Assembly: GCA_963770895.1 (NCBI GenBank)
Contig: CAVYRF010000002.1
Span: 5,216,001-5,280,000 of the forward strand
DNA length: 64,000 nt
Source of the DNA: an uncultured Acidobacteriota bacterium
GTDB taxonomy: Bacteria; Acidobacteriota; Thermoanaerobaculia; Multivoradales; UBA5704
Reading direction: 5' to 3'
Below, piece after piece: positions 4,273 to 37,986 of the stretch. Every line of letters begins with the position of its first letter. Positions within the stretch are counted from its first letter, which is position 1. The notes beneath the pieces are model-generated. The model was not told where the DNA came from and did no database searches. It saw only the letters and a program-made list of their open reading frames with translations. Made by a program: the position numbers and the translations under genes.

Positions 4273-4608
4273 TCAGCGTGAGATTTCGACCTCGCCCGTC
4301 AGCTCCTCGGGGTCGACCTGGACCGCCGGTACCGACGCCTGGCCAAGCGTCTCCAAGAAAAGCTCCACTGGAAGGTCTGCCATCCTCGCAGCCTGAGCCA
4401 GGGTCAACTGCTCGGCCGCGAAAAGCCGGATAGCCAATGCGCGGTGCACCCCGAACGACAGCAGAAGGTCGTCGAACGGTACCGCCAGGATCACAGGCCG
4501 GCCGTGCTTCGTGATGATCGAGAGCTTGCCCTCCTCGGCACCACGCATCAGGTCGCCCGAGCGGTTGCGCAGATCGCGGATGGTGAAGATGCCGAAGGGC
4601 TCTCTCAT
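4273..4608 (-). CDS. Phd/YefM-UPF0175 fusion antitoxin; toxin partner missing
   Basis: N-terminal [21 protein letters not shown] (Phd-like), C-terminal [20 protein letters not shown] (UPF0175). Close paralog of 39416-39751. Confidence 0.85.
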   Translation of the reverse strand: MREPFGIFTIRDLRNRSGDLMRGAEEGKLSIITKHGRPVILAVPFDDLLLSFGVHRALAIRLFAAEQLTLAQAARMADLPVELFLETLGQASVPAVQVDPEELTGEVEISR

Positions 4609-4668
4609 AGGTCGATGCGAGCGGCCGCGACGAGTCTAGAATGGCGGACGGGGGCATCTTAGATCGCC

Positions 4669-4977
4669 GTGATCCCGACCACCTACGAGCACATCGCCCT
4701 CGACGACCAGGGTATCCCCTGGATCAGTGCGGCCAACACCAAAGTGGTCGAGCTGGTCGCCAGCGTCAAGGCGCACGGCTGGAGCCCCGAAGAGCTGGTC
4801 TTCCAGTACCCCCACCTGACCCTTGGCCAGGTGCACTCCGCGCTCGCGTACTACTGGGACCACCGCCAAGAGATTGACGCCGACCTGGCCCGCCGGGAGG
4901 ACTATATCGAGCGGTTGCGGGCCGAGACGGGTGATTCCCCGGCCGTCGCCAAGCTCAGAGCCCGAGGCCAGCTCTGA
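4669..4977 (+). CDS. DUF433 domain protein (VapB-like antitoxin)
   Basis: G.P.I..T.V...V....GWSPEEL..QYPHLTLGQVHSALAYY signature. Confidence 0.85.
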   Translation: MIPTTYEHIALDDQGIPWISAANTKVVELVASVKAHGWSPEELVFQYPHLTLGQVHSALAYYWDHRQEIDADLARREDYIERLRAETGDSPAVAKLRARGQL

Positions 4978-6132
4978 CCCGGCTCGGCGGTTTCTACTGC
5001 GACCACCGGGGTGAACCCGGCAGGCGATCATCCTCCCCCGTATCGATCTCCTCGCCGCGTTTGTAGACCAGCCCAACCGCCTTCCCCCCCGACTAGCTGA
5101 ACGGGCAACGGTCCTTGGCCAGGGGCCTCGTCTCTTCCGACGGGGGTTTGGTCGCCGAGGCCCGCTACCGCCCGACCGTGCGTCGTCGTCGCCATGGGTC
5201 GGACTAGCTGGCTTCCCAGCGCGCGGGACAAATCGGGGCGCCCAGTACTGGGTAGTCTCCCCTGGGCGAACGGTTGCCATCATGCGCTAGTAAATCGCTA
5301 AAATAGCTGTACCCGACGCCCGTAAGTCCAATGTTGTCCATGGAATATGCCTCTGGGCCACTTGCGCGATTCTGAGCAAGCCGTGTGCTCCCCCCTCGCA
5401 GGCTCACGATAAGGCGCGTGGCGCCGGAATCTGAGGCTCGGGCGAGGGGCCATCTGGGCGCCGCGCTACCTGGTTAACCCTTGAACTTCGCGGTCTTCCG
5501 GCACCGTCGCGATCACGGGCCGGACTTGAAATGAGCCGACAGACCTTGCTGACAGCGCCGCGCCGGACGGGCGACGACGTAAGCGACTACTGGTAGACGA
5601 CGGGTGACGGGGGTCACAGGACCGGTGGCCGTCAGGCTGGGGTTGTGTCGCCACCTTCGGTCGACCGTCAGCCATAGGAGAGGCACCGGTTCGATCGCCT
5701 GGCGGGGCTTACCTTGATCGCGGCCGGTGCGGTTGCCTACAGGTCGTCACCGCACCCTCCTGTTCGACTTGGGGCGCATGGACTCTCAGCCCTCCGGCCG
5801 CCCGCCATCTTCGCCGAGCTGGTCCGCAGCCTGCGCCCCGGCACCCGGCATTCCCAACGTCCAGGGCCGATCTCACCTCGGCGAAGGTTGCACCCGCTAC
5901 GCGCTCAAGTCCTCAGCCAACAACGCGGGTCGCTGACGCCACGGCGCGCCCACAGCGGTACCGCCTTACAGCGGCTCGTGACTGACCTCCGGCGACCCTG
6001 GGTCCTTATCGGGAACGAAACACCGTCTTGCCCCCTTGGCAGCCCCCGACGCTCCCCATCTGTCTCGCTGAACCCGGACCTGAGGTGCGGAAGCTCAATC
6101 GAGAGCACCGCATCGTCGATGGAGGTTCAGCC

Positions 6133-6393
6133 GTGTCGCCGACGAAACCACTTGCCAGCACCTCTCGCACCACCGGCCCGCTGTGTGGACCCCGCTTTCT
6201 CCGGCCCGAGCAGGTTGCATCGGCTTACTCCCTTTCCCGGAAGTTTCTCGCTCACGCACGCGGACGGGGTGACGGGCCGGTCTACCGCAAGATTGGGAGG
6301 AAGCTGGTCCTCTACGCCATTGAAGACGTTGAAGCGTGGCTTGCCGCCCGACGGCGTCAATCCACGTCAGACCCAGGCCCCGCGGAAGACTAG
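6133..6393 (+). CDS. Excisionase/AlpA-like HTH protein
   Basis: GTG after GGAGG; FLRPEQVASAYSLSRKFLAHARGRGDGPVYRKIGRKLVLYAIEDVEAWL. Paralog at 40256-40501. Confidence 0.8.
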   Translation: MSPTKPLASTSRTTGPLCGPRFLRPEQVASAYSLSRKFLAHARGRGDGPVYRKIGRKLVLYAIEDVEAWLAARRRQSTSDPGPAED

Positions 6394-6844
6394 GTCCGTA
6401 CCGCGCCGAGCCTGGGCATGGTCGGAACGACAACACCTCCGCTCGTAGTCCATGGCGCTCACCGCCAGCTGGCGAACGCGCGCAACTTGGCGCATCGGGT
6501 GTGCCAGTTCCTCCGACAGGGGCATCGGGCCGAAACCTTGAGGCTTGCGCAATCCATCGCAGGTTGCGCAAGCCGCTTCAGGGTTGTTGAAGGCCACCTT
6601 GAAGGCGCATACCCCTGTTTCGGTCCCCTGTGCCCGGCCTGTGCTCTCTTGCGGCAGCGGCGTTTGTACCGCAGGCTACTTGATGTCGAAGAGAGGCTGC
6701 GAAGGGACACGCCCGAGGTGGTTGCAACTTTCTTGACGCTTACCATCAGGACCCCTCGGGGCATTGAAGGCTTCCACGGCGAGATCACCGGGTTCAAAAG
6801 AGGTGTCGCTCGGTTTGTCGCGAGCCTTGAACTTAGGGGGGCAC

Positions 6845-8289
6845 CAGTAATGTCCGGTTAGAAGTCGAACAGAATGAGTTGGTTAGCCGCAGTGCGCAGT
6901 TCTCGCTGGGACCGGTCAGGCTGGAAAGCGCATGAAACCTCGGTTTTCTCGAAGACCGAGACCGACAAGATCTGTAGACATGTGTAGAGCGAGGCATCGA
7001 GTTGAAGCTCCTTCTTAAGGATGGCAATCAGCACGTAGGTCGCGACGGCGCACCAGATTTGCGTCTTCACGGCGTTCTCGCTGGTGCCCAGGAATCGCTT
7101 GATGCGCAGATGTTGCTTGATCCACTTGAAGAACAGCTCGACCTGCCATCGGCTCTTGTACAAGGCAGCGATCGCCAACGGTGGCAAAGTCGTGTTGTTT
7201 GTCAGGAAAACAAGCGTCTTGCCCGAAAAGGGGTCCTTGAAACGGACGCGCCGCAAATGCTCCGGGTAGGCCTTGGCCGAGTAGAAGCCATTGAGCATCA
7301 CGCGCTGGTCGCAGATCACGCCAGTGGCGCGTTGCGTCTCAAACGAATACACCCGCCGGGCGGCCATTCCATGCTTGGCGCGGGTGACGAAGAAGGCTCC
7401 GGTCTGATGCATCGCATAGAGCCGCGCGAAGTCGACATAGCCGCGATCCATGACGTAGAAGGCTCCAGCCTCGACGGGCAGGATGTCGAGCACGTTCACA
7501 TCGTGAAGTTTGCCGTCGCTGATGAGGATGAACGTTGGAATCGCGCCGCGCAGGTCCAGAAGCGTATGCAGCTTGACCGCCGCCCTGGTCGATTGAAACG
7601 GCGCCCAGTCGAACAGGCTCAGGCACAGATCGATGGTGGTGGAGTCGAGGGCGTAGACGCTGGTGTCGAGATCGAGGACCGAAGGCTCTTGCGCATAGAG
7701 TGCTCTGGCGCGCACGATCAGCCGCTGAGCCAGCGCCTGATAGATACGCCAGTCGCGACGCTCGAGCGCGTCGGCCAGCGTCGAGCGGGCGGGCGCTGCC
7801 TTGATTCCCATGTGGAAGAGCTTGCCTTGATTGGCAGCGAGGCAAGCCTCGATGTCGCGCAGAGACTCGCGCCAAGTGAGCTGCGCGAAGGCCATGATAC
7901 GGAACAGGTCGGCGCAACTGAGGGTACGAACGCCAGCATCGCCCTTGTGTCGCTCGATGATGCGTCCGAAGGTCTTCCAGGGGACGAACTCCATCACCTG
8001 TGCGAACAGCGTCTTGCCCACGTTCATGCGTCACCTCGGATCGGTCTGACCCGAGAGCATCGCAAATCGTCTGCTCAAGATGGGGCATCGCGGTGAAGTG
8101 CGGGGAGCGTGCCTCAGGCCTCAACCGCGGTCTCGAGCCGTCGAGCTCGGAGCCGCCCTTTGCACCGGACTCCAGGTCATCCTGTACGCAAGGCCAGGAA
8201 TTCAAATCGTGGACACCCATCGGAGGCCGCAAGTGCCAGTCACTGCCACGTTTGTGGCAACAGGTCGCCAAAACAACCGGACACTACTG
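6845..8289 (-). mobile_element. IS4-family element
   Basis: TIRs CAGTAATGTCCGGTT / AACCGGACACTACTG; 9-bp TSD GGGGGGCAC at 6836-6844 and 8290-8298. Confidence 0.95.
6858..8027 (-). CDS. IS4-family transposase
   Basis: DUF4372-like N terminus; DSTTIDL, VMDRGY, YKSRWQVELFFKWIKQHL. Confidence 0.95.
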   Translation of the reverse strand: MNVGKTLFAQVMEFVPWKTFGRIIERHKGDAGVRTLSCADLFRIMAFAQLTWRESLRDIEACLAANQGKLFHMGIKAAPARSTLADALERRDWRIYQALAQRLIVRARALYAQEPSVLDLDTSVYALDSTTIDLCLSLFDWAPFQSTRAAVKLHTLLDLRGAIPTFILISDGKLHDVNVLDILPVEAGAFYVMDRGYVDFARLYAMHQTGAFFVTRAKHGMAARRVYSFETQRATGVICDQRVMLNGFYSAKAYPEHLRRVRFKDPFSGKTLVFLTNNTTLPPLAIAALYKSRWQVELFFKWIKQHLRIKRFLGTSENAVKTQIWCAVATYVLIAILKKELQLDASLYTCLQILSVSVFEKTEVSCAFQPDRSQRELRTAANQLILFDF

Positions 8290-9261
8290 GGGGGGCACTG
8301 CGAATCATCGAGGTCCAGCCGCGGGAAGATCAGGGGCTTGGGTTGCACTGTCACGTCGTCGCGTTGACGGACCGGCTATCGCCTACGACGGCCACCGTGC
8401 GCAGCCCGAGCCAGCTCAGTACTGAGTGGCGCACGAGTTGCCGTCTAGCCTATGCGCCGCAGGTAGATGCTCAGGTCATCGACCTCCGAGAATCGCGGAG
8501 GCTCGCCCGCCTCGGGTACTACTTGCGGAAGTCTTGGGGGGACGACTTGTCGTGCAGGCGAAGCCGGAGGATGCTTATTGACCCCGACCACGCTGCGGCT
8601 GTGGCTCTCGTTTTCAAGGGCTGCTGCCGCATGAGCGCTGCCGGGCTGATGAAGCAGGCCCTGGCCGCCGGCATTGCCGAATACCGAGCGTCAAGACCCC
8701 AGCCTTCCCTTCCGCCCCGAGCGGAGTCCGCGCCCAGGACGCCGGCGAAGGTGCCGCGCCGCGGGGCACCTCCTGCGAGGCAGCGACCCAGCACGCCGGC
8801 TCCAAGCCAGGAAGCCTCTCCACGTCCGCAGGTCTGCACGCGCTGTGCCTGCCGGTTCATCGTCAGCCGGCGCACCAAGTACTGCGGCGCGGCTTGCGCG
8901 GCTGCTGTCCGAAGAGAGAGGCAAAGAGCCTCGAACAAGGTCTATCAGGCGACTGCGAACGGGACACGGCACCACAACGAACGCCAGCGCCGGTACCGCG
9001 CACGCAAAGGAAAGTGACGGAGCAGTGTTGCCAGCTCCCATCCCTTCAATCCATATCGCCTTATGCTCGATCGCGGGATGCAGCATCCAGGTCGCGGCTG
9101 GTGTCGGCTTCACCTGGAAGAAAGGCGCTCTTCCAGCCCTTGGCACTCCCGAAATACTCCGCGATTCGGAGTCTTCGGACGTCCCGCGTGGATACCCATC
9201 CAGACCCGCACCGAGCTGCTGGCGAAGGGGATTCGGAGCCACTGGGTATCAAGGTCTTCGG

Positions 9262-9859
9262 TGCGTCTTCCGGTTGAAGCCGGCCACTGATTCCGACCAA
9301 GGTGGCCACCTGTTGCGACGAAACCGGCCACCGAATCCAGCGGGAAGGCGGCCACTTTGCCGGTCCGGCCGTAACAGCCGGCCAGGATCGTCGCAGTGGG
9401 TGGCCGAGCTGGTCGCGGCATGGGCCGTAAAGCATTGGCGGAGAAGCGATTGGTGAGGCTCTTTGGGCCTGGCGTCCTGGCAGATTGGACGACCAGGAGA
9501 GGCTATGCCAGCACGGAGAGTAAGCATGGGAAAGAGTCGAGAGGTCCTGCGGTTGCTGTAGGACCGAGGATTGAGCCAGCGACAAGCAGCGGCTTGCTGC
9601 GGGGTGGGCCGCGCGACGGTGTCGGCGATCGAGGCGCGAGCGCGGCGGAGCGGTCTGGACTGGAGCGGCGCCCAGGGCCTGGCGGACGCGGCGTTGGAGG
9701 AACGCCTGTATCCGCCGGCGGCAGTCGAGGTCGAGACGCGGCCGCCGGTGGACTGGTCGCAGGTCGATCGGGAGCTGCGGCGCAAAGGCATGACGCTGCA
9801 GCTGCCGAAGGGGGGAAATTAAGCCTGCGACTGGGTCCATTTTCGGCGTGCAGATGACA
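9262..9859 (+). mobile_element. Degenerate IS21-family remnant
   Basis: TG-starting end with repeated GGCCAC units; istA 5' fragment 9505-9803 (MPARRVSM..REVLRLL*..DWSQVDRELRRKGMTLQL) with an in-frame TAG; IS21-type end GGTCCATTTTCGGCGTGCAGATGACA. Confidence 0.7.
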
Positions 9860-10143
9860 GGTGTGAGCGAGCGTCGGAATCCGTCGAAATCCGAGCATCA
9901 GATCGAGCCTGAGCGGTCAGCATCATCCCGCGCGTAGCGCGGCGGGTGGAGGGGGTGCGGGGGAGGAGGGGCGAGGGGGGATATGCTGAGCCGAGCTGGG
10001 TAGAGAAACGAAAACCCCGGTGGACGCCGGGGTTTTCGCGTCGTTCCGCGGCCCGCCAGCAGCGAGCCTCGGCCCAACCGAGACAGTTGGAGCCTGGCAC
10101 AGGCGGGCCGCGTTCGTCCAGTCCCCCAGCGACTGGAGGCGAG

Positions 10144-10600
10144 GTGCCTGCGCCTGAGGTTCCGGTCCTTCATCCCCGTTTCTGCCGGCGGTGTGGTCGT
10201 CCGTTCGCGATCTGCTGCGGTTGCGACCGCGGGTATGCCTATGGTTCTCGGGCATGCAGCGAGGCCGCTCGTCGGGAGCGGCATCGGGAGGCCAAGCGGC
10301 GCAACCTGAAAACGCCTCAGGGACGGGCCAACAATGCTCGTCATCAGCGCGAGTATCGAGCGCGTCGCCGGCAGGGCGGCGGCGGTGGTCCTGGCGGGAG
10401 CGTAAGGGATCGGTCTTCCGCGGTGCGGTGCGGTCCTGAGACGCTGTGGGCGGGGCTGCCGCGGGTCCGCAGAGAGCGGAGCGCCGCCGAGTCGCCCTGG
10501 GAGAGCGCCTGTGAAGACCACAATCAGGGTTGGAGTGGCTGTGTGGTGTGCGGGGGCGGTAGTCCGTGGCTCGATCCGTTCGGAGCGCGGGGAGTAGGCC
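10144..10600 (+). CDS. Cys-rich basic hypothetical protein upstream of istA (domain extent shown; frame stays open to 11160)
   Basis: GTG after GGAGG; CRRC..AICCGCDRGYAY..C..ARRERHR..TPQGRANNARHQREYRAR. Homologous to 36218-36634. Confidence 0.6.
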
Positions 10601-12106
10601 ATGCTCGATGCCGGGATCGTCACCGAGATCAAACGCCTGCATTACGCCGAGCACTGGCGGATCGGCACCATCGCCGCCCAACTCGGCGTCCATCCGGATG
10701 CTGTCCGTCGGGTGGTGTCCGGCGAGCCGGGAAGCCGGCGGCCGGCGGCGCCGCGGCCGTGCCGGATCGATCCGTTTCTGCCCTTTGTGACCGAGACCCT
10801 GGAGCGCTATCCGCGTCTGTGCACCACGGTGCTGCATCGCATGCTGCGCGAGCGCGGCTTTGTCGGCGGCGTATCGCAGTTGCGGCGGGTGGTGCGTGCG
10901 CTGCGGCCTCATCGTCGCCGGGTCTTCGTGCGTCTGGCCAGTCTTCCCGGCGAAGCCGCGCAGGTCGATTGGGCCGACTTCGGCTGCGTCACCGTGGGCC
11001 GTGCCCGGCGCCGGCTGGCGGCCTTTCTCATGACGTTGGTCTACTCGCGGGCGCTCTACGTCGAGTTTTTCTTCGACCAGACGCTGGGCAATTTCTTGCT
11101 CGGCCATGTCCACGCTTTCGAGCACTTTGGCGGCGTACCGCGTCAGGTCGCGACGGATAATTTGCGGTCGGTCGTGCTGGAGCGCCATGGCAACCAAATC
11201 CGGTTTCATCCGCGCTATCTCGAACTGGCCGGTCATTACTGCTTCGAAACTCGCCCCTGCCACGTCGGCGCCAGCCAGGAAAAGGGCCGCGTCGAGCGCT
11301 CCGTGCGTTACGTACGAGATTCGTTTTTCGCCGCTCGCGGCTTTACCACCCTGGCCGATCTCAACCGCAGCGTCGGGCGTTGGATGGCCGAGGTCGCGTC
11401 GGTGCGCCGCTGGGTGGACGATGATGCTCGTGCCGTCGCCGACGTCTTTGCCGAAGACGAGCAGCGCCGCCTCCTACCGCTGCCGCGGCATTCCCTCGAT
11501 ACCAGTCAACGCAGTACGGTGCGCAGCGAAAAGCTCCTCTTTATCCGCTTCGACCGCAACGACTACTCCATCCCACCGACCGCGGTCGGCAAAGATTTGA
11601 CCCTGCTCGCCACGGATTGCGAGGTCCGTCTGCTCGACGGCACCGTCGAGATCGCCCGCCATCGCCGGTCCTACGACCAGGCCGAGCGCCTCACCGACCC
11701 GGCTCACAGCCAAGCCCTGCTCGCCCACAAGCGCGGCGGCGTACCGACCGCCGTCGAGTCTCCCCTGCGACTCGCCGTACCCGAGGTCGCGGCCTTCTGC
11801 GATGCCGCCTTTGCCCGCTATCGGAGCGTGGCCCTGCTGACCACCGCACTGACTCGCATGCTCCATCTCTACGGAGCCACATCCCTGAGCGCCGCAATCG
11901 CGGAGGCCCTTGGGCGTCAGACGCCGACCCTCGATGCCGTCGAGTACCTGCTCGAAAGGCACCGCCGCGCCGCCCAGCGGCGCCCTCCTCTGCCCGTCGA
12001 CCTGACCGACAAACCCGAGCTCGCCACCTATCATGTCCAACCCCATCCTCTCGCCGGCTACGACCAGCTCGCCCACGACGCCGCCACGGAGGATGTCGAT
12101 GATTGA
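10601..12106 (+). CDS. istA: IS21 transposase IstA
   Basis: [40 protein letters not shown]. Confidence 0.95.
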
Positions 12107-12857
12107 CCTTGCCGCGCAGCTCCGCGCTCTCGGCCTCTACGCCACCGCCGCCGGACTCGACGATCTCATCGCCACGGCCAGCCAACGGCGCCTCGGGCCT
12201 CGCGCTCTGCTCGAACACATCGCCACCGCCGAAGCCGCCGACCGCGCCCGCCGCTCCCTCGAACGGCGGACTGCCAGAAGCCGACTCGGCGCCTTCAAAC
12301 CCATCACCGATTTCGATTGGAGCTGGCCAAAGAAAATCGATCGCCCCCTGCTCGAACGAGCTCTTACACTCGATTTCCTCAAGGACGGCAGAAACCTCAT
12401 CGTCCTCGGACCCAACGGCGTCGGCAAGACCATGCTCATCAAAAACGTCGCCTATCAGGCTGTGCTCGCCGGCTATTCCGTGCTCTTTCGAACCGCTGCC
12501 GAACTGCTCGACGACATCGACTGCGACTCCCCAGAGCTACGACGCCGCAGAATCGCCGCCTACACCACGCCCGCCCTCGTCTGCCTCGATGAAATCGGCT
12601 ATCTCTCCTACGACGACCACGCCGCCGATCTCCTCTACAAGGTCATCAACCCCCGCTACGAAAAACGACGCTCTCTGCTCCTCACCACCAACCTCGCCTT
12701 CAAAGACTGGAACGCTGTCTTTCCCAACGCCACCTGTATCGTCACCCTCATCGATCGCCTCACCCATCACGCCGACGTCACCGCCATCGAAGCCGACAGC
12801 TACCGCCGACGCGAGAGCGAGGCCGAGGCCGCCGCCCGCCGCAAGCGCAAGCCATGA
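12099..12857 (+). CDS. istB: IS21 helper ATPase IstB
   Basis: Walker [26 protein letters not shown]. Confidence 0.95.
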
Positions 12858-15865: not shown

Positions 15866-18800
15866 CTACATGCCGGCCGAGGCAGTCGCGATCGCCCGCC
15901 GCGTGATCCCAGATTGCAGCGGGCTCACAAGGTCGAGGCGCTGCAGCAAGTCCCAGCACACGAACGCCGGATCTCCCGGCAGCACGCGGCCGGTCAGGCT
16001 TGCCAGACGTTGCTCCAGCCAGGCCGCCCAGGCAGCTTCGTCTTCATGTACGGCGGCGGCGGTCACCATGATACCGACGAGGCTGGCGATCCCTTCCTCC
16101 GCACGGGTGCGCGGGGCGACGGCAAGAAGAGCGTTGGCCACGGCGTCGGCCAGGTCGAGATCGCGCTGCGCGACTGCGACCAGCGCCGCCTGCTCAAGGT
16201 CCTGCCAGCGCTTCTGGGAAGGTTCGCCGCCCTCGTCATCGGCGGCGAGGGATGCAGCCAAGCTCGCCCGTACCGCAGCGGGCAGCCGCCCGAGCCAGCC
16301 GTACAACAACGCTCCGGCCCAAGCGCCCTGGCTCGGGATCCCCGCCAGCTGCGCCAAAAGCACTTCTGGCAGCTCCTCTCTTGGGCGGAGATGCGCGGCG
16401 AGCGGGTCGGTTGGGAGCACCGGCCAGACAGCACGGTAGGCGGCTTGGATGTCATCGGCCCCTGGCACGCGTCTGCCCGCCGCTTGATGGGCCACGACGA
16501 GCCGCCATAGCCGGGAGAGAAGCTCCGCGCGCACATACGGTGCCGCAAGCAACCCAGGACGGACGAGGGGTTCCCGCCGGCGATCGATCATCTTGGCCCA
16601 CCTGCCCACCAGCCAAAACCCGGTCTGTACGAATTCGGTAAGCGCGCCGAGATCGACTGCGCCTTGCGGCAGCATTGGGGCCATCAAAGCCGCCTCCATC
16701 CAGGCGCACATGCGCCGCCAGAACGGCGGGCGGAGGGCGCTGCCCCCAACCAGCATGAGCTTATCCAGCATGAGCTCGACGAGCAGCGCAAAGACGGCGT
16801 AGAAGTCGCCACCACAAGGGAGCGGAAATGTATCTGAGACGAGTGCCGGCAGCGCCCGATTCAGCAGCGCCGCGAAGCGGGGGTCGTGCTGGCGATGCAG
16901 GGCCACGTCCACCGCGGCCAGGAGCGAAATCGGCTCGGCCTCGGGATGGCTGGCTTCGAGAGCGTTCCACACCTCGTCGTCGTTGTACGGCGCGAGCCAG
17001 AGCCCGGGCAGGAGCTCGTCGCGTAAGGCGCCGCGAAGGCAGGTGCGGAGACCCTGCACCAAATCGCGGCGCAACAGGTCCTGCCGGTGCGCGGGCAGAG
17101 TGACCGTGAGATACGTTTCGGGATCGGCCGTGCCCGGGTCCGGGCCGTAATATCGCTCCATCAAGAGGAACGAGGGGGGAGGCAACTCGTCCAGCGGGAT
17201 CTGCCGATCGGCGAGCGCTGCGCCCACCTGGTGTTCGTGCGGCACGAGCGCGTTCTCGAGAGCACTCAAGAGTTGATGGATCTCTTCGACGGTCAATTCT
17301 CGGAGATCGGCAGCCGCACGCAGTGCGGCCAGCTCTGGCGGCGCCATGCCACCGAACCGCGCGAGCACCTGGTCCAGAGCGTGCAAGCGCGCCGCGCGGT
17401 CCACCGCGAACAGATTCGTGTCAAAGAGCTGAAGGACGATCCGGTTCGGCTCGCCCTCCCCCTGGGGTAGATCGATCGCAGGGACCTCGTCGTGGAAGAC
17501 CAAGCGGGCGGCCCTGCCGTCTGCGGTCGTGAGCGCCTGAGGCTCCCGAGTCACCAGGAGGCGCCGCGTAGCCTCGAAAAGGGGCTCGGGGTGGAACGCG
17601 ACGAGGCCTCGCAGAACGACCACCTCCTCGGAGCGCAAGCCGAGCTCGGGCCGGAAAACGAAGTTCGCACGGAGCCAGTCGCAGACGGTCTGCGGTTGAC
17701 TGTTGAAGAGATGGCGTGCGAAAAGCGCGGCATGCTCCATCGGCTCGGAGGTCCATCGCTCGATCAGCTCGCCTGCCTGGCGGCCGAGGGCCTCGACCAT
17801 TCCAGGATACTGGGCGAGGCGCGGCCGCAGCACATATGCCTCCACCCACTCGCGGTAGGCCGCCAGGCGGCCTTCGCCCATGGGAGGCAGCGGCTGGAGG
17901 AGCCCCCAGGTGTGCCGCACGAGCGCCTCGGTGGCATGCTCCGCGGTCGGTCGCGCATCGCTCAGGCCCTCATGGGGCGAGGGTGCGACATGGTGCCAGA
18001 TCCAGTCGGAGACCTGGGCCGCGCGTTCGGACGGCAGGTCTGCCCTTTGCCAGAGCTCGCGGATCGCCAGAACGCTCGTCGGGTAGAGCGCTTCACCGAG
18101 GCCCCGTCTGGCGCTCTCGTGAAGCGGCGGGATCGCGCGCACCCTTGCCAGGGACTGACGAAGCGTGCGCAGTTCGGCGCTCTCGACGAGATCGCCCGCT
18201 TCCGGCCAGCGTGCGCGTGATCCCAGGGCGACCAGCTCGTCAGGCGCCAGGGGCACGAAGCAAAAGCCCGCCTCGCGCAGCCGGTGATGGATCGTCTCTT
18301 GCTCGGCGGCCGTCAGCACGCCCTGGTCGACCAGGAACTGCACCAAATCGAGAACGCAGAGGACCGGCACCGTGCGGCCCTGCTTGTCGGTAAGGCCGCG
18401 GTACCGGTTGATGGCCCGATCGTCGATGCAGATCGCGTCACAGATGCCGGTGTCCGCATCAAACTGCAGGAGTGTCGGTGGCGCGGCACCCGGCAGCTGC
18501 TGGCCGTCGATCGAGTCGCGGCGCGGCAGGAGCCGGATCTTGCCGGCCTCGATACCCGACCGGAGCGCGCCGCGGATCTGGTCGAGGGTCGCGGCAAGCA
18601 GGTCGCCATGGCGCGCGCTGTCAAGCATCCGGTTGGTGTCGGCGCGCAGCGACGGATGCACCCTGAGGTCGAGACCGGCCGCGATCATCGGCTCCAGGAG
18701 CTGGGCGTGCTGGAGATAGGTCACGGCGAGATCGTCGAGGTACAAAGGACGATCTAGCAGCGAGCCGTCGCGCGGCACAGCCCCCGGGCGGTCCTGGGTC

Positions 18801-21800
18801 AGCAGATAACGCTGAGCCTGCTCGTGCTGAGCGGCGTCGAGGTAGCCACGCTCGTAGAGCGCGAGTTCCAGATCGACCGTCGACCAGATGCGCTGCTCGT
18901 CGGCGCCGAGCACCGCGAGCTCCTCCATCAGGCTCGCCGGCCGGTAGATCGGCAGCGGCCGGACGACGCTGCCGCCGCTCGTGCGGGCGGCCAGGAGAAG
19001 CTGCGCGAGATCGCCGCCCACCTCGGCGGCGAGCTCGCGGAGGTCACCGGATGCTGGCTCGGCGTCGCGAAGCTGCTGCCGGTCCAGCATCTCCCGCAGC
19101 CTCTCGGCCGCGCGCACCAGCGCGGGCTGCTGGTGACGGACCTGATTGCGGTCGTTGAGGATGACGAGCAGCGTGTCGGCCGCGACACAGACCTTGGGCA
19201 GCGCGGCGAGGACTCTGTCCAAAAGCTCCAGGTAGGCGAGGACAAAGATCGACGTGATATCGAGGCCCACGACCCAGTCCGGCGGCAAAACCTGGGGCTG
19301 GCTGTGCTCCGAGAGGATCGGAACGAGGGTTCGCTGGCGTCCGTCCTGGGACTGGCGGTTCGCACGCGGTATGCCGATAAGGAGATGGGACAGCGGGACA
19401 TGCAGCTCGATTGCGGCCTGATGAAGCGGTAGTTCACCGCGCAGCCAACCTTCCTCCACCCTGCGCCGGTGTTCGCGTTGCGCCGGCATCATCTGCGTAA
19501 CGACAGTCCGCAGGTCCAGCGCGCGCGCCGGGCCGTCCTCGGCCGACAGCGCCAGCGCCTGCCGCGGCCATGAAGCCGTCTCCCGATCGTCGTCGCGGCC
19601 CAGCTTGAAACGCAGCCAGATCGCCGATACCAGGAGGTGCGCATCGCCTTCGTTGCGCTCCACCGCGAGCTTCGCCAGGTCCCAGGCCCGCTCGGCGGCC
19701 ACATCGACCTGGGCGGCAATCGAAGCCAGTCGCATGAGGGTGGCGGGAGTGTGCCCATCGCGTCGCGGCCACTCCCGGTCAACGATCGCTGAGAAGCGCT
19801 CCCATTGCCCTCCGGCGAGGGCCAGGTTGATGTCGAGGTCGAGATCGAGGTCGTCGACCCGCTCCGCCATCAGCTGGCGATTGAGGTCGTTGGCCTCGCC
19901 GAGACGGCCGGCCCGAAAGAGCGCCCAGGCCCTGGCCGACTGGAGCTCTGGCGCCTGCTCGACGAGATCGGGATTCGCGTCCAGGAACGCCAGGATCTCG
20001 TCCGGTGCGGCGTCCCCGGAGCGTTCCATGCAGACAACCAGCTCCAAAGCGTTGCGCCGGTTCGGCAGCCGCCGGACGAGCTCGGCGACGAGTGGGTGGA
20101 GAGCAGCCCAGTCCCTGGCTTTCCTCAGATAGCGGATCAGGTTCTCGAGATCGATCAGATCTCCTGTCCGAGCGAAGTTGGCCTCGAGGCCCGGGCGCAG
20201 GTCCTCCTCACCCTCATGCTGCAGGATGCGGAGCTCGATACGCCGGATGTCGTCCTCGTCGAAGATCCCTTGCGATGCCTGGAGCTCTGCCTTGGCCCGA
20301 GCCAACTGGCCGTCTCCGAGGAGGACCTCGATGCGTGCCCCGGCCAGGCGGTCGGGCGCCAGCACATCCTGCAGGCTGGTCGCTTCCCGATCGAGATAGG
20401 CGAGCTGGTCACCAGGCGAAAGGGCCTGCTCGTTGATGAGGAATTCGGCGACGCGCTCCTCACGCGACAGCCCTCCCAGATGCGACCGGCGCTCGAGGTA
20501 TCGCATCGCTTTGGCGGCATCGAACGGGATGTCGCGGGCGCGCGCCAGCGGCAGCAGCCGGACCATGCTCTCGCCTTCGCTGCTCATGCTCCGCTCCAGG
20601 TCCTGCCGCGCTGCAGCGACCACCTCGGGATCCGGGTGGGTCAGGAGAAGCCACCTCGACCAGATGCCGGCCTCCAGGGCGAGGGGAGGGAACAGATCTC
20701 GCCACAACACCTGGGTGCGCTCGAAACAAAAGCTGGCCTCGGCCCGATGCCGATCGGCCCCACCCCCTTCGAGTGTGCGCAGGCCGTGCAGGTACACGAT
20801 CCCACCGAGCACCTCGCGGCGCAGCTCTGGGGACACCAGGAAGGCCACTCGCACCCGCCCCTCGATGTTCGGCAGCTCCGGGTAGTCGTCCCAAAGGTGG
20901 CGAACCCGCTCCAGGGAGGCTAAAGCATCCTCCCAACGGCCCTCTTGGGCGAGGGCCACGGCAAGCTGACGCCAACCGAATCCAGTGAGGAACTCAGGCC
21001 GCTCGCCGCCGGGCAGGGAGGCAAATCGAGCGAGGGCCTCTTCCCGACCATGGACGCGGTAGAGGACGGCAAACAGGTTGGCTCGCGCATCGGGGTCGTC
21101 GAGGTCGCGCAATGCGTGGAGCGCACCTTGGGGATCTCCACCAGCCTCAAGCAGGAGAGCGGCGAGGATGGGAGTGCCGGGCGGCAGGGCGTACCGCGCC
21201 AAGCGAGCACGGAAAGACTGCGCTTGCTCGAAGGTCGCGGCGTTGGCGTGAAACCGGGCGGCCCAATACAGGATCTCCGCCTGCTTCGCCGCGTCCGCGT
21301 GTCGGAGATCGCCAGCGGTGGCGCGGTCGACAAGGCGCACGATGTCGGAGCAGCCCTCCTCGAGGGTCGTCACGCCTCGGCGCCGCAGGATGAGGTTCAG
21401 CTCGCGGGCGGCGCGGGCCGAGTGGTCCTCTTGGATCACGCGGTCCGGCGCCGGATCGATGGGGAACAGATCCTCGATCTCCTCAGGGGAGAGCTCCTCC
21501 CGCAGCAGGCCCCAGAACGAGTCGATGCCGAGGACTCTGAAGGTGACCGCGGGGTGGCTGGCCTTGAGGCCGGCAACCGCGCTGGCGGCGAGCTTGCCGA
21601 TTGCGTCCTCGGGGTAGTTGTGGACGAACGACCAGCAGCGAAGGTTGCCCTCAAGGGTCGAGTAGGCGGTTGTGAAGTTGTCTCGCAGCTTGGTTACCAG
21701 GATGCTGTCGGTTTGCTCAGTGATCCTGGCGGGTGCATAGATCTGGTACACCTCACCGGTGTTGATGACCAACCCATCGAGGCCACCGTCGCCGCTCGTC

Positions 21801-21946
21801 TTGCGGATACGCTGGAAGTCGCCACTTTTATGGAGTGCGCCCACCAGCCGTTCGATCAACGACTGGAACTCCTCGTGGAACAAGGATCGGAACTGATCGC
21901 GAAATCGGAGACGCTGGAGATCGAGGCGTGTCATGTCAACCGGCAT
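15866..21946 (-). CDS. 2026-aa protein: N-terminal PD-(D/E)XK-like nuclease, TPR-like repeats, PIN-like domains; putative anti-phage
   Basis: FQRIR...GDGGLDG......VYQIYAP head; helical repeats; PIN-like LDITSIFVL, LYLDDLAVTYLQ, ICIDDRAIN. Confidence 0.7.
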   Translation of the reverse strand: MPVDMTRLDLQRLRFRDQFRSLFHEEFQSLIERLVGALHKSGDFQRIRKTSGDGGLDGLVINTGEVYQIYAPARITEQTDSILVTKLRDNFTTAYSTLEGNLRCWSFVHNYPEDAIGKLAASAVAGLKASHPAVTFRVLGIDSFWGLLREELSPEEIEDLFPIDPAPDRVIQEDHSARAARELNLILRRRGVTTLEEGCSDIVRLVDRATAGDLRHADAAKQAEILYWAARFHANAATFEQAQSFRARLARYALPPGTPILAALLLEAGGDPQGALHALRDLDDPDARANLFAVLYRVHGREEALARFASLPGGERPEFLTGFGWRQLAVALAQEGRWEDALASLERVRHLWDDYPELPNIEGRVRVAFLVSPELRREVLGGIVYLHGLRTLEGGGADRHRAEASFCFERTQVLWRDLFPPLALEAGIWSRWLLLTHPDPEVVAAARQDLERSMSSEGESMVRLLPLARARDIPFDAAKAMRYLERRSHLGGLSREERVAEFLINEQALSPGDQLAYLDREATSLQDVLAPDRLAGARIEVLLGDGQLARAKAELQASQGIFDEDDIRRIELRILQHEGEEDLRPGLEANFARTGDLIDLENLIRYLRKARDWAALHPLVAELVRRLPNRRNALELVVCMERSGDAAPDEILAFLDANPDLVEQAPELQSARAWALFRAGRLGEANDLNRQLMAERVDDLDLDLDINLALAGGQWERFSAIVDREWPRRDGHTPATLMRLASIAAQVDVAAERAWDLAKLAVERNEGDAHLLVSAIWLRFKLGRDDDRETASWPRQALALSAEDGPARALDLRTVVTQMMPAQREHRRRVEEGWLRGELPLHQAAIELHVPLSHLLIGIPRANRQSQDGRQRTLVPILSEHSQPQVLPPDWVVGLDITSIFVLAYLELLDRVLAALPKVCVAADTLLVILNDRNQVRHQQPALVRAAERLREMLDRQQLRDAEPASGDLRELAAEVGGDLAQLLLAARTSGGSVVRPLPIYRPASLMEELAVLGADEQRIWSTVDLELALYERGYLDAAQHEQAQRYLLTQDRPGAVPRDGSLLDRPLYLDDLAVTYLQHAQLLEPMIAAGLDLRVHPSLRADTNRMLDSARHGDLLAATLDQIRGALRSGIEAGKIRLLPRRDSIDGQQLPGAAPPTLLQFDADTGICDAICIDDRAINRYRGLTDKQGRTVPVLCVLDLVQFLVDQGVLTAAEQETIHHRLREAGFCFVPLAPDELVALGSRARWPEAGDLVESAELRTLRQSLARVRAIPPLHESARRGLGEALYPTSVLAIRELWQRADLPSERAAQVSDWIWHHVAPSPHEGLSDARPTAEHATEALVRHTWGLLQPLPPMGEGRLAAYREWVEAYVLRPRLAQYPGMVEALGRQAGELIERWTSEPMEHAALFARHLFNSQPQTVCDWLRANFVFRPELGLRSEEVVVLRGLVAFHPEPLFEATRRLLVTREPQALTTADGRAARLVFHDEVPAIDLPQGEGEPNRIVLQLFDTNLFAVDRAARLHALDQVLARFGGMAPPELAALRAAADLRELTVEEIHQLLSALENALVPHEHQVGAALADRQIPLDELPPPSFLLMERYYGPDPGTADPETYLTVTLPAHRQDLLRRDLVQGLRTCLRGALRDELLPGLWLAPYNDDEVWNALEASHPEAEPISLLAAVDVALHRQHDPRFAALLNRALPALVSDTFPLPCGGDFYAVFALLVELMLDKLMLVGGSALRPPFWRRMCAWMEAALMAPMLPQGAVDLGALTEFVQTGFWLVGRWAKMIDRRREPLVRPGLLAAPYVRAELLSRLWRLVVAHQAAGRRVPGADDIQAAYRAVWPVLPTDPLAAHLRPREELPEVLLAQLAGIPSQGAWAGALLYGWLGRLPAAVRASLAASLAADDEGGEPSQKRWQDLEQAALVAVAQRDLDLADAVANALLAVAPRTRAEEGIASLVGIMVTAAAVHEDEAAWAAWLEQRLASLTGRVLPGDPAFVCWDLLQRLDLVSPLQSGITRRAIATASAGM

Positions 21947-22043: not shown

Positions 22044-25000
22044 TCAGTGATCGAAACCGGTCCGCCGCCTCTCGGCTCCTTGGTCCACGATGCGGGCATC
22101 GCGCTCATAGGAATTCGCGAGGGAGTGGAGGATGGCAGCGGTTCGCGGCGAGCGGTCGAGAAAGAGCACGGCTTGTGCACGAAACGTAGCGGCGAGGGTC
22201 CGCTCCTGATCTCCCCCGTCGAACATGCCTCGGCTGGTGACACCGCGGCTGTTCAGGACGGCCGTTTTGAAGCCACTCTCCACGTCGCGACTTTGGAGCG
22301 TCTCGAGGAGATCGCGAACCTCCACGCAGGGCCACGCGCCGTCGGGGTCTGCAGGACAGCTGGCGAGCACCTGGCCGATGTGGATGTCGCCGACAGCGAG
22401 CCTCTGGAGGCGCTGCAAGTCGCGGCGACTCGCGGTAACCCAATCGACAAGAACCTGGCTGTCGAGAGCCCCGTCGTCTCGCTGACCTGGAAGGACACGC
22501 CACTTGGAGAGGAGCCGATAGGCGTTCCGGGCTAGGGCCTGCTGCTTCTCGGTTGGCTTGGCAGGCTCCAGTTCCTCGGGTGGCTCGCCTGTTCCCGAGG
22601 CCTCCTCGCGCTGGGGACGGTAAACGGTGGCCACGACTTCGACAAAAAAGCTTGGGTTTGCAGCGAGGTAGCGGCCCAGAGTCGATGTATTGGCATTGCG
22701 GCCGAGCGCTGACAGGTACGACCATTCAAGCTCGGCAAGCCGGTCTCTGGGAAACGTCGATGTCTCGAGGTAGTCGAAGAGCTGAGCGATTTCGTAGTGC
22801 GAGATAGCTTGGGCCTCGGGATCAGCTGGCGTCCGATCCAGCAACGCCGCAAGGCCTGCCGCTACGCTCTCGGCCGAGGTGAAGTCGGTGTTGTGGCGTA
22901 AGTAGAGGCTGATGATGTGCAGCGCTGACCCGGGTCGTCCTGCAGCGAGGAGCCTCGGCACGACGACGTCCAGATGGGCGAAATTGGAGCCGAGTCCAAA
23001 GATTTGAAAATGCTGCCAGAAGACACCTTCAACCTCGGCGCCCAGGCTCTCAGCGGCTTCCCAGGCGGCAGGGAAGTCATGGGTTGCTAATAACAGACGG
23101 CCTGATTGCTCGGGCGAGAGGCTACCTCCGTGCAAGAAGCTGTCGACCCAGGGCCAACCCTCGGTGCGGAAGCGCTCGTAGAGGTAGCTTGGGGCGAAGG
23201 TGGAACCCAGCGGATTGTCGGAGCCGAGTAGGGCGAGAAGCTGCGGGTCGTATCTGGTGACTTCGGCATGGGCGATTGCCCAGCCGAATATGGAAGGTTG
23301 GTGCCGATGTGATGCGAAAGTGTGGAGCTGTGGCCAGTCCGCTGCCGCAGCGATTTCCCGAACGGCCGCGATCCGCAATGTCTTGATCGCCGCGTCGTAG
23401 GCTTCCACGCCGTCGGCGTGGCGAACGTTGGGAATCTTCGGCATGGCCTGATCGAACAACCACGCAAATCGGTCGAACACCGCAATAGGCTCAAGACGCT
23501 GGACGATTCTCTCGAACTGAGAAACCTCATCCGAAGAGAGCGCCCAACTGCTGTCTGTGAACTCGCGGTGGCGAGCGACGATCGTCCGGAGCACTTCCCA
23601 AATTTGCTTCCTGCTCTCGGCGGCGAAATTCTCTTGGTCGGCCAGCGCGAGAAGCCGTGTCTTAATCTCTGCTCGCGTCTGGAAAGGAAGATTGGCGAGC
23701 TCTTCGATCAATGCGATCCATCGCTGCGGATCCGAGCCCACGTGCTCCATGAGGCGCACGCACGCCGCCTCGACTACTTGGGAGCGCTCGCTATCGGTGG
23801 GCTGGATCTGTTCTGGTTTCCAGGGGCGGAAGCGCGGAGCATAGGTGAGGTCGGCGAAATGGCCGCCACCGCAGCTGATCGCGAGCAGCAGCGGCCAGGC
23901 CACACTCTCGTGCCGCTGGCAAAGCGCATCGAGCGCTGCGATACGCCGATCCACGGTAACACTGTTCTGCGGATACCACGGGCGAAAGATGGCAATGAGA
24001 CTGGCCTGCGGCCGATTGAGGAGCTTGCCGCCGGGATCAATCTTAGCCAGACGGGCAAGTACGTCAACGGCTTGGCCGAAATCGACGGGCGACCAGGCGC
24101 AGACTTCGAGTGCCCAGAGGAGACCCGTGTGGGGAGAAGATGTCTGGTCCCGATCGGAGAACATGGCTTCCAGGACGGGCGGATCGCCGGTGAGGCCGGT
24201 AATGGCGGCCTCCAGGAGAACCGACGGCGCAGCCTCGGCGAGCAAGGGTAGAACGTCATGCAGGGATGCCCAGATCCGGCAGGTCGGATCCTGGTTCGCC
24301 GCCTCGAGGATTCGCCACACCGTATCCGCTGCCCAATCCCCGGCGGTTTGTGTCGTCCCGCTTATCGTGAGGCCGACCGAGTCTCCGAGCAGCGCCAATG
24401 TTACTGCAAATCCGTGCCGGAGCTCACCCGAATAGGGCGGAGTTTTACCGTAGACCTGCGCCAGCCATCGCTCGGCAGCGGGAAGGTCGAGCGCTGGGTC
24501 ACAGGCGCCGAAAACTCTGGCGGCGCTGGCCTGGAACACCTTGAGATCCTCGTTACGTAGGTCGCCTTTGAGCAGCCGCCAAGCATCGAAGGGGGAGACG
24601 AGGCCGACTGCTGGACCGAACCGTGCGAGGAGCGGGTCGCCCGGCGCTAGGAGAGCCCCTAAGCTCTCGGTAAGGGCGTCGTAGGTGTCCAGTCCGGTGA
24701 GGTCGGAAAGGACCGCCCGATCTTCGGTAGAGCTGTCAAGCCATCGGCCGGCGAGTAGAACCCGGCGAACCAGTCCGGGGACGGGGGGGCGGGCCCACTC
24801 CGGACGATACAGCTCCGGGTGGCTGGCGATGGAGCGCCGGGCCGCCTGCAGGTTGAGACGGGCCAGGGCAGCGACTTCGCCAGCGCGACCTTCTTCCAAG
24901 CCTGCGGCGATAAGCGCGTCCTGGGCTTTCTGCGCAGCGATCGGCGGTAGTTTGATCGTGAAAGGCCCGGAGTCGAGAGGCACCAGAAGATGGTGCTGCG

Positions 25001-25847
25001 AAGAAGAGCTGAGGTCGTCAGCGACCTCTTGGGTGGTCGGCACGAGGACGAGCGGGGCTGCGTGATCCCGCCATCGTCGCCACGCCGTGACGTCGTCGAG
25101 GAACGCGATCCTCGCGAGCAGCTGGCCGCGATCGACTCTTGACTTGCGGACACCCAGCGCGCTGATGAACGATAGGACATCGTCGCGGCTCGCTCCCTGT
25201 ATCGTGGTGATCTGGCCGGGCTTCGCGAGGCGCTCCTCGATTTCCTCCACTGCCTCATTGCGGCCGGCGAGAAGGGCGTCGGGCGGGAAGGCAGGAGAGG
25301 TTGCTTCGGACCACCGAGCCCACCAGGTTTCTGCCGGGACGAGGCCATGAGGGGACAGGCCAAGGAGCTCCGAGAGCCATACGTGGGTCACGGGCGCTGC
25401 CTCAAGCCATGTTTCGATGTCGTCGAGGCCGAAGGCGCGAACGGCCCGCCACCGACCTTCGGCTTCTTTTTCTCTGGCCCACGCGGCGCGGTCCTTCCAT
25501 CGCCGAAGGAGAGCTGCAACGTAGGTGCAGTCGCCTGTCGGTGTCCCGTCCGGGGTGGAGAGGCGCTTTGCATAGTCGAGGTCGGCTTTGCGCTTGACCG
25601 CCTTCTGCGTCGAAACCTCCCATAGGGAAAGGCCCGCCGGAATGAAGGCGGTGGCTTCGTTAGTCCGCACAGTGCCGTCCCAGCCTGCGTCGCCGACGCC
25701 CTCGCCAGCTGGAAAGCCCAAGCGCACTAAACCGCGCCCTGTTTCCAAAATCAGGCGACGGAGCAGCCTGGGGAAATCACCCCGCGCGGCGAGCGAGTCC
25801 GCCCACCGCAAGAGATCTGTCTGGTCGGCCAAGCCGAGTCTAGCCAT
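22044..25847 (-). CDS. 1267-aa protein: N-terminal restriction-endonuclease-like domain, possible degenerate NTPase, long helical region; putative anti-phage
   Basis: FPAGEGVGDAGWDG...GLSLWEVST..KADLDYAKR head; LLAGR...ITTIQGASRDD; tail NSRGVTSRGMFDGGDQER. Confidence 0.7.
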   Translation of the reverse strand: MARLGLADQTDLLRWADSLAARGDFPRLLRRLILETGRGLVRLGFPAGEGVGDAGWDGTVRTNEATAFIPAGLSLWEVSTQKAVKRKADLDYAKRLSTPDGTPTGDCTYVAALLRRWKDRAAWAREKEAEGRWRAVRAFGLDDIETWLEAAPVTHVWLSELLGLSPHGLVPAETWWARWSEATSPAFPPDALLAGRNEAVEEIEERLAKPGQITTIQGASRDDVLSFISALGVRKSRVDRGQLLARIAFLDDVTAWRRWRDHAAPLVLVPTTQEVADDLSSSSQHHLLVPLDSGPFTIKLPPIAAQKAQDALIAAGLEEGRAGEVAALARLNLQAARRSIASHPELYRPEWARPPVPGLVRRVLLAGRWLDSSTEDRAVLSDLTGLDTYDALTESLGALLAPGDPLLARFGPAVGLVSPFDAWRLLKGDLRNEDLKVFQASAARVFGACDPALDLPAAERWLAQVYGKTPPYSGELRHGFAVTLALLGDSVGLTISGTTQTAGDWAADTVWRILEAANQDPTCRIWASLHDVLPLLAEAAPSVLLEAAITGLTGDPPVLEAMFSDRDQTSSPHTGLLWALEVCAWSPVDFGQAVDVLARLAKIDPGGKLLNRPQASLIAIFRPWYPQNSVTVDRRIAALDALCQRHESVAWPLLLAISCGGGHFADLTYAPRFRPWKPEQIQPTDSERSQVVEAACVRLMEHVGSDPQRWIALIEELANLPFQTRAEIKTRLLALADQENFAAESRKQIWEVLRTIVARHREFTDSSWALSSDEVSQFERIVQRLEPIAVFDRFAWLFDQAMPKIPNVRHADGVEAYDAAIKTLRIAAVREIAAAADWPQLHTFASHRHQPSIFGWAIAHAEVTRYDPQLLALLGSDNPLGSTFAPSYLYERFRTEGWPWVDSFLHGGSLSPEQSGRLLLATHDFPAAWEAAESLGAEVEGVFWQHFQIFGLGSNFAHLDVVVPRLLAAGRPGSALHIISLYLRHNTDFTSAESVAAGLAALLDRTPADPEAQAISHYEIAQLFDYLETSTFPRDRLAELEWSYLSALGRNANTSTLGRYLAANPSFFVEVVATVYRPQREEASGTGEPPEELEPAKPTEKQQALARNAYRLLSKWRVLPGQRDDGALDSQVLVDWVTASRRDLQRLQRLAVGDIHIGQVLASCPADPDGAWPCVEVRDLLETLQSRDVESGFKTAVLNSRGVTSRGMFDGGDQERTLAATFRAQAVLFLDRSPRTAAILHSLANSYERDARIVDQGAERRRTGFDH

Positions 25848-28097: not shown

Positions 28098-28178
28098 TAG
28101 CAAAGCCGGGAGGTTCATCGGCGAAAGACTTTTAACCGTTGCCTAACAAGCGCATGCCGCTATGTCTTGGACTAGCGG

Positions 28179-29531: not shown

Positions 29532-29537
29532 GAGTGG

Positions 29538-29933: not shown

Positions 29934-30191
29934 TGATGGTGTAATCTCCAGGCCCGCTCATCGGAGCGGCATTACAGAGTTCCAAGCAAGAGGCGGTCTC
30001 CGGTCCTGCGGCGATCCTGCGTTGGGGTCAATGATCGTTTCGCCAACAGCAGGCGTGTGCCGCGCGCCGCCGGTTCTCTGGAAGCTGCGTGCGCGTCCGC
30101 CGGGGGATCTCGCGGCTAGCTCTGACCTTGCCCATGCGTAGTCTGACCCCAGGCCGTCGTGCATGGGCTGTGGCTCCGCGGCCTGGATGTC

Positions 30192-37977: not shown

Positions 37978-37986
37978 GGTCGTTGG

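Follow-up and report, generated by a model that had tools for sequence, protein, structure and literature searches.

What was the gene that once ran between positions 6418 and 9017 of this stretch of DNA, and how did it come by its Cys-rich tail? The stretch, which we call the window, comprises 64,000 nucleotides from an uncultured Acidobacteriota bacterium (assembly GCA_963770895.1, contig CAVYRF010000002.1, positions 5,216,001 to 5,280,000). Its list of open reading frames (ORFs) shows only fragments at this place, 6418–6861 and 8109–9017, both on the forward strand, with a 389-amino acid (aa) transposase ORF (6858–8027, reverse strand) lying between them. The gene, we conclude, is probably the wreck of a divergent rolling-circle initiator (Rep) of the Rep_1 family—an HUH enzyme—to which a Cys-rich tail was fused ancestrally. 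It is dead here: an IS4 element has split it, a frame-breaking indel probably precedes its VTEQC block, and its downstream flank has been lost to other insertions.

The splitting element is an insertion sequence of 1445 bp (6845–8289, reverse strand), bracketed by 15-bp terminal inverted repeats with one mismatch (CCAGTAATGTCCGGTT and AACCGGACACTACTGG). Its transposase has DUF4372 and DDE_Tnp_1 domains (Pfam), and its assignment to the IS4 family comes from NCBIfam model NF033592 (275.9 bits versus a cutoff of 115). BLAST of the window against the genome finds three full copies and one partial at 99.3–100% identity, the two other full copies being 100% and 99.9% identical to the one in the window. 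Its limits were set by the inverted repeats together with a comparison of the flanks of the three full copies, each of which has its own 9-bp target-site duplication; here this is GGGGGGCAC, at 6836–6844 on the left and 8290–8298 on the right. When the element and one duplication are removed, the reading frame is kept (...SLELRGA/LRIIEVQ...), as an initial annotation of this DNA had proposed. The 5' piece of the gene (6418–6843, forward; 142 codons, P0001) contains an N-terminal Cys cluster, CFGPLCPAC, and, in translation, motif I, FLTLT (6730–6744). The 3' piece (8298–9017, forward; 239 codons, P0002) ends at a stop codon at 9015–9017, and its catalytic part (8298–8693) includes HCH (8346–8354) and the catalytic-tyrosine motif YYLRK (8517–8531).

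The two pieces were searched separately, not as one joined protein. Of 6951 candidates, a word-index search with P0002 returned three: the fragment of 285 aa from the window itself, a protein of 171 aa matching the tail only, and P0004, a 415-aa metagenomic protein with a precomputed PF01446 match. P0004 is 49% identical to P0002 over 95% of the latter's length, and its residues 1–142 are 55% identical to P0001. It aligns to P0001 at the N-terminus and to P0002 from residue 143 onward, and it passes the insertion point without a gap (SLDLRGCLRIVDVK opposite SLELRGA/LRIIEVQ). Because an intact protein matches across the junction in this way, the split gene was formerly a single gene of the same architecture; and because that architecture is shared at 49–55% identity, the fusion is ancestral rather than a product of decay. 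An intact homolog carrying the C-terminal domain was the test that the initial annotation had named beforehand, and P0004 is such a protein.

Searched with HMMER, 1.84 billion representative proteins yielded 346 matches to P0004 at E <= 0.001. Of these the best 150 were listed, and what follows on matches refers to them. Rep part and tail are both spanned only by P0004 and the window's own fragment; seven proteins match the Rep part only, and 141 match only the tail (query residues about 276–415).

The catalytic half belongs to an established family, Rep_1 (PF01446), though as a divergent member. P0004 passes the gathering threshold of 33.2 bits with 36.2 (E 5.9e-9). P0010, P0062, P0083, P0091 and P0149, from among the seven Rep-part matches, score 52.6–229 bits, with the closer relative, P0010, at 52.6 and the distant ones at 213–229; P0008 is below the cutoff at 25.7 bits, and P0016, the seventh, was left out of the Pfam scan. 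When the strong members (213–229 bits) are aligned, FLTLT, HCH and YYLRK fall on their FLTLT, HPHIH and KYSVKP, so that motif I, the HUH motif II and the Y-x-x-K motif III appear in the expected order. The initial annotation had placed all three motifs correctly, and its HUH Rep reading is supported by this alignment and by the score of P0004. A review of such enzymes defines Rep_1 by the initiators of pC194 and pUB110 (PMC5714925). By tblastn, residues 47–207 match ten small Firmicutes rolling-circle plasmids annotated ‘protein rep’ (25–29% identity), and there are six Inovirus records as well (26–31%), three of which are annotated as replication proteins at the match.

Compared with plasmid initiators of the pC194/pUB110 type, then, the protein has the same N-terminal Cys cluster, FLTLT, H-x-H and Y-x-x-K, in the same order. 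It differs in being very divergent, with P0004 barely passing the cutoff, in its doubled tyrosine (YY), in having no acidic residue at position –4, and in a C-terminal extension of roughly 130 residues (linker plus putative zinc-binding basic domain) that is present in none of the seven other Rep-part matches. A profile search of the PDB with the Rep alignment found no relative by sequence; metagenome contigs searched with P0004 and a two-row alignment, and genome contigs searched with P0004, yielded no relative; and in 400 other genomes of the phylum the Rep part was not found, the matches elsewhere being to the tail domain alone.

The AlphaFold model of P0004, made from a 10-row alignment, has a mean predicted local distance difference test score (pLDDT) of 69, and 75–92 in the core. 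Foldseek finds one meaningful match to it, SIRV1 ORF119 (2x3g; E 4.8e-3, probability 1.0). VIA-align places ten HUH-type entries among the 50 best rows, at Z 5.0–6.5 and amid Thg1, S6 and ACT folds that score just as high: ORF119 (Z 6.5), the NS1 proteins of MVM, bocavirus and B19, AAV5 Rep, geminivirus Rep, Vientovirus Rep, Helitron and two pMV158 RepB entries. The parvovirus, AAV, geminivirus, Helitron and RepB domains reach Z 5.1–6.0. With solved HUH Reps (SIRV1 ORF119, AAV5 Rep, parvovirus NS1, geminivirus Rep, pMV158 RepB) the central beta-sheet/helix core of the model aligns over 100–141 residues at Z 5.1–6.5; sequence identity is 7–14%, Z stays under 8, and none of them has this C-terminal domain. 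Such matches are consistent with an HUH fold and are no proof of it.

The catalytic part is followed by a Pro/Arg/Ser-rich linker of 46 residues (8694–8831, forward; 14 Pro, 9 Arg/Lys), the counterpart of which in P0004, residues 276–337, has pLDDT below 50 and is predicted to be disordered. Then comes the Cys-rich basic domain of 61 aa (8832–9014, or to 9017 with the stop; forward), consisting of CxxC...YCxxxC and two Arg-rich helices, with four conserved Cys and a net charge of +16; linker and basic block are both where the initial annotation had put them. The tail belongs to a family of mostly stand-alone proteins of 130–230 aa. Against a profile built on an alignment of 50 of these (A2), the Rep tail scores 55.9 bits (E 2.6e-18) over model positions 3–75 of 152, and a genome search with the same alignment recovers the tail at E 1.2e-13. 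Eight Cys are conserved in A2, six of them N-terminal (in 49–50 of the 50 proteins) and two forming a C-terminal CxxC (in 45 of 50); a VTHQGS motif and a C-terminal FLR are further hallmarks. The proteins that match only the tail of P0004 are mostly 73–275 aa long, and the match is usually N-terminal. Modeled, the 138-aa stand-alone copy from the window (pLDDT 83) forms a beta-hairpin and then a helical hairpin, and the tail in the P0004 model has the same elements.

Of the eight family Cys, the Rep tail and P0004 have only those at positions 9, 12, 29 and 33. A 4-residue deletion, shared by both fused proteins, removes the second CxxC (positions 19 and 22); the C-terminal CxxC is missing from both, and the C-terminal half of the family is absent. 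In the stand-alone proteins, we infer, the second CxxC and the C-terminal CxxC may together form a second zinc site. No name for the domain comes from Pfam (E up to 10), NCBIfam or PHROGs, nor from the PDB by sequence or by fold, where the best are YacG at E 5 (Foldseek) and a Z of 4.2 (VIA). The 30 nearest clusters in the ESM Atlas are all hypothetical. A Pfam scan of 17 longer proteins that carry the domain found no partner domain save in one RHS-repeat protein, which is probably a mini-element (see below) lying within an RHS gene. One named candidate was considered. The N-terminal zinc finger of lambda NinG/Rap (PF05766) likewise has CxxC...(W/Y)C-x-x-x-C and then a basic helix; one member of the Cys-rich family matches Pfam NinG weakly (E 0.023), and in the nearest ESM Atlas cluster with any Pfam family (score 0.86) 12% of members carry NinG. 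The identification was rejected: hhalign of A2 with lambda NinG aligns 14 columns at a probability of about 1%, and the resemblance is one of motif only.

The initial annotation had also suspected a further frameshift right at the stop. At 9014–9028 (forward) lies a block encoding VTEQC that is homologous to the VT(H/E)QG motif of the family and is out of frame with what precedes it. The 3' end of the Rep gene and the gene at 36218–36634 share CGGTACCGC; beyond this the Rep gene falls short by 7 bases, a length not divisible by three, before an exact match over 15 of 15 bases, GTGACGGAGCAGTGT, which encode VTEQC in the other frame. The DNA homology upholds the suspicion; the family profile does so weakly, placing KVT at the expected model position with 2.1 bits. 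At the same site P0004 reads RTDDCG in frame and ends nine residues later. Since the block is homologous yet out of frame, a second lesion is likely, namely an indel at roughly 9003–9013 that breaks the frame; to the window protein such an indel costs a short tail only.

Where does the tail usually live? The gene at 36218–36634, taken in the initial annotation for a homolog of the Rep, turned out to be no Rep relative at all, and to be the sole gene of a 614-bp mini-transposon. The family's habitual home is in IS21 elements, which are normally described as two-gene (istA/istB) transposons. Matches to A2 occur in 24 of the 401 sampled genomes of the phylum, including the window's own and G049 (flagged unpublished), and in several of them identical copies are numerous (nine matches in G015, nine in G385, eight in G258). 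Of 30 loci, 19 have an IS21 IstA gene directly behind the Cys-rich ORF on the same strand, covering 14 of the 23 genomes besides the window's own; one of these IstA proteins scores 269 bits on NF033546. The 11 loci without IstA include three with an ArdC-like gene, one contig end and the G049 locus. In four of four pairs from multi-copy genomes the repeated unit starts 291–383 bp upstream of the ORF, with TGT in its first three bases; the element thus encloses the ORF.

The window has such an element of its own (9862–12857, to the end of istB; forward strand), with left end TGTGAGCG..., placed by comparison with a partial copy on contig C1 that is 91% identical. It comprises the Cys-rich ORF (aligned by the family's hidden Markov model over 10180–10557, 63.9 bits), istA (10601–12106) and istB (12033–12857), identified by NF033546 (255.4 bits) and by Pfam IstB_IS21. 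Together with loci L012, L015, L022 and L008 and with NZ_AP025174.1 (L055, 3501–6179), it represents an IS21 subgroup with a conserved third gene of ~140–190 aa within the left end, upstream of istA. The Cys-rich ORF occurs too in 22 plasmid records from Burkholderia, Paraburkholderia, Caballeronia, Cupriavidus, Rhizobium, Mesorhizobium and Methylotuvimicrobium. For most of these the plasmid table, itself incomplete, has no gene at the match; in the Cupriavidus plasmid pMTS3 the ORF abuts istA-istB. The ArdC-like gene (N-terminus MAKRPPKQ...APWQKPWKPGE) follows the Cys-rich ORF at L017, L020 and L023 (G250, G393 and G399), and with this neighbor in three genomes the family may have a second, conjugative-element context.

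The mini-transposon (36171–36784, reverse strand) is bounded by imperfect terminal inverted repeats of ~43 bp (TGTTGG.../...CCGGCAACA), with AGAAG as its 5-bp duplication. The 138-aa Cys-rich protein already mentioned is the product of its one gene. The genome has a further copy of the 614-bp unit at 99.7% identity. A 616-bp counterpart is present in seven copies in one metagenome-assembled Acidobacteriota genome (L046 5871–6486, L047–L052), with perfect 11-bp terminal repeats and a left end resembling that of the window's three-gene IS21. These mini-elements look like non-autonomous IS21 derivatives that have kept just the Cys-rich gene. For an element the size of a miniature inverted-repeat transposable element to retain an intact ORF is unusual. 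The one in the window also supplies the last 37 bp of a tyrosine-integrase ORF (36748–38136, reverse); the Pfam catalytic domain ends earlier, and the native C-terminal tail of the integrase has thus been replaced.

Set beside the first-gene family of IS21, the Rep tail has the same CxxC...YCxxxC, the same Arg-rich helical hairpin and the same VT(E/H)Q, the last out of frame. The family, however, is stand-alone, has eight Cys (six N-terminal, two C-terminal) and sits inside IS21 ends, whereas the Rep tail has four Cys, is without the C-terminal CxxC...FLR half, and lies outside any IS21. No IS21 ends surround it, and the other two copies of the family in the window do sit in an IS21 or a mini-element.

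How might the intact protein have worked? It would have been about 381 or more aa long, and would have been part of an element, whether plasmid-like, phage-like or integrative, the rest of which has decayed. By analogy with other members of its family, the HCH motif would bind a divalent metal, the tyrosine of GYYLRK would cut one DNA strand at the origin, and the protein would then stay covalently attached to the DNA. A disordered linker of roughly 46–60 residues would tether the 61-residue, four-Cys basic domain to the C-terminus. That this domain is a zinc-stabilised nucleic-acid-binding module, helping to hold Rep on its origin or on DNA generally, strikes us as quite possible, if a little short of an even bet. 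Fusion to an enzyme that needs a specific DNA site is a hint that the family as a whole binds DNA. A bolder proposal, which we advance tentatively and think somewhat doubtful, is that the Cys-rich module is a portable zinc-finger protein for recognizing DNA ends or origins: a true third gene of an IS21 subgroup (in at least Acidobacteriota, Myxococcota and Pseudomonadota), important enough to be kept as the only gene of ~615-bp mini-transposons, and recruited on one occasion by an HUH replicon to direct its Rep. In that case a targeting or regulatory module without a database name would be common to a DDE transposon and a rolling-circle replicon.

Being dead, the Rep gene by itself matters little to its host. 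What it documents is an architecture of rolling-circle initiators known from two cases only among the 1.84 billion representatives (best 150 of 346 matches). Its tail, in turn, exposes a sizeable family (346 representative clusters or more in all) that is missing from curated libraries; the family supplies the first gene of many IS21 elements and the sole gene of short elements bounded by terminal inverted repeats. If DNA binding proves true, it would be a regulatory or targeting component for IS21 biology, and a new solution to origin binding for HUH initiators. In the literature we found neither a zinc-finger-tailed Rep_1 nor a third IS21 gene described, a description in ISfinder being possible. 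The Rep_1 review mentions no tail-like domain, and the word ‘zinc’ does not occur in it (PMC5714925).

Several observations weigh against all this. P0001 scores 27.4 bits on Rep_1 (E 2.9e-6), below the gathering threshold, and P0002 has no Pfam match whatever; the window pieces being sub-threshold and P0004 above, the window gene qualifies as Rep_1 only by way of its homolog. The strong Rep_1 members have Glu four places before the tyrosine, where P0004 has Gly and the window protein Arg; an acidic residue there is needed for catalysis in pC194 RepA. The structural matches of P0004 all fall below Z 8, mixed with generic ferredoxin-like folds and Thg1, and Z values this low can reflect just a common arrangement, according to the review. 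The fused form is without four of the family's eight conserved Cys. For the Cys-rich domain neither structure nor sequence comparison gave a match of known function, and the argument for DNA binding is therefore one of charge and context only. Finally, nothing in the window, be it an origin, a nick site, an integrase or another gene of the element, could be tied to the Rep; the flanks of the gene are truncated, so the absence of an origin may be secondary.

Could the fusion be an accident of decay, in which a deletion joined the Rep gene to an independent Cys-rich gene, such as that of a mini-element inserted behind it? The region is a pile of insertions, the gene has at least two lesions already, and mini-elements with only the Cys-rich gene are present in the same genome. 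Yet P0004, from an unrelated 28,481-bp metagenome contig, has the same domain order, linker and boundaries at 49–55% identity, and the specific 4-residue deletion that removes the second CxxC is common to both proteins. Nor is there a mini-element terminal repeat near Rep: the 16-base motif is found only at 36185–36200 and 36755–36770. An accidental joining is, in our view, close to refuted. Nearly as improbable is that the enzyme was an HUH rolling-circle transposase, akin to those of IS91 and ISCR, with a Cys-rich domain taken from a DDE transposon as its end-binding module. IS91-type transposases are related to pC194-type Reps, the other home of the tail is a transposon, and one distant Rep_1 match, P0091, hits Zn_Tnp_IS91 at E 8.5e-6, just below the cutoff. 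For P0004, however, Pfam at E up to 10 gives Rep_1 only and no Y2_Tnp. The Rep region is present once in the 8.16-Mb genome, and its Rep part was found in none of the 400 other genomes of the phylum; a single copy, and two examples only among the best 150 of 346 matches, is not the pattern of a transposon.

Easier to entertain, though still unlikely, is that the protein served an integrative mobilisable element as its relaxase or mobilisation initiator, performing the same chemistry at an origin of transfer (oriT), and did not initiate vegetative replication. A small ORF encoding an HTH_17 (AlpA/excisionase-like) protein (6028–6393, forward) ends 25 bp upstream of the Rep start, and would then be its excisionase-like partner. 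The Rep gene lies in the chromosome among integrases and other mobile DNA, and the Rep_1 proteins of pC194, pUB110 and pTA1060 also serve in conjugative mobilisation, as PMC5714925 reports. Against this, no integrase, attachment site or tRNA adjoins the gene; the window contains no tRNAs, and its nearest integrases are more than 27 kb from Rep. The HTH_17 match is itself below the Pfam cutoff (24.3 bits versus 27; E 3.9e-5) and the ORF, a possible partner gene of the lost element, has no NCBIfam match. Nothing here tells an oriT from a double-strand origin.

The surroundings bear the marks of repeated insertion. Downstream of the Rep stop there are only ~170 bp of unassigned DNA, and then a 75-bp fragment of a CusA/CzcA-like RND efflux gene (9188–9261, forward), 84% identical to the intact gene at C1:530999–531073 with an internal 1-base gap. 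The source region lies within a 999-codon ORF, and blastx aligns WIPIQTRTELLAKGIRS with PLGIKVFG. This fragment is wedged between the Rep remnant and an older remnant of the IS21 family (9262–9861, forward), which limits how far native DNA extends behind the Rep gene. From 9260 on the sequence resembles other IS21 copies, and an istA N-terminus with an in-frame TAG occupies 9527–9822; the three-gene IS21 cuts it off at 9861, making the insertions nested. The flanking ORF fragments at 4636–6445 and 9014–9840 have no Pfam matches.

For nicking assays the initial annotation had proposed 9020–9260 as a substrate, and part of this is the RND pump gene remnant. The same remnant disposes of the one candidate origin. 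CTTGATA, the nick core of pC194 and phiX, occurs once exactly in the window (9247–9253, reverse), against 2.0 expected by chance, and variants with one mismatch are at chance level (82 found, 63 expected). The exact match consists of GIK codons of the RND remnant and is not an origin. Of inverted repeats in the Rep flanks there is one weak example upstream and none downstream.

Farther afield, the window holds a group II intron (49371–51144), with matches to Rfam domains D1–D4 and domain V/VI and a reverse transcriptase/maturase ORF at 49677–51053; a second group II domain match (53098–53173, reverse) lies just past an integrase gene (51707–53020). Two very large ORFs occupy the reverse strand. 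That at 15866–21946 (2026 aa) has only an HTH_upst_double_PIN match and a sub-threshold PIN-TPR-GreABC match, and that at 22044–25847 (1267 aa) has none in Pfam or NCBIfam. The interval 28001–32000, in which no ORF passes the coding filter, has a G+C content of 0.54, versus 0.61–0.72 elsewhere in the window. Small, recurring modules of toxin-antitoxin type, UPF0175/Phd-like with DUF433 or DUF3368/PIN-like partners, are dispersed in the mobile DNA at 4273–4977, 33993–34349 and 38922–39796.

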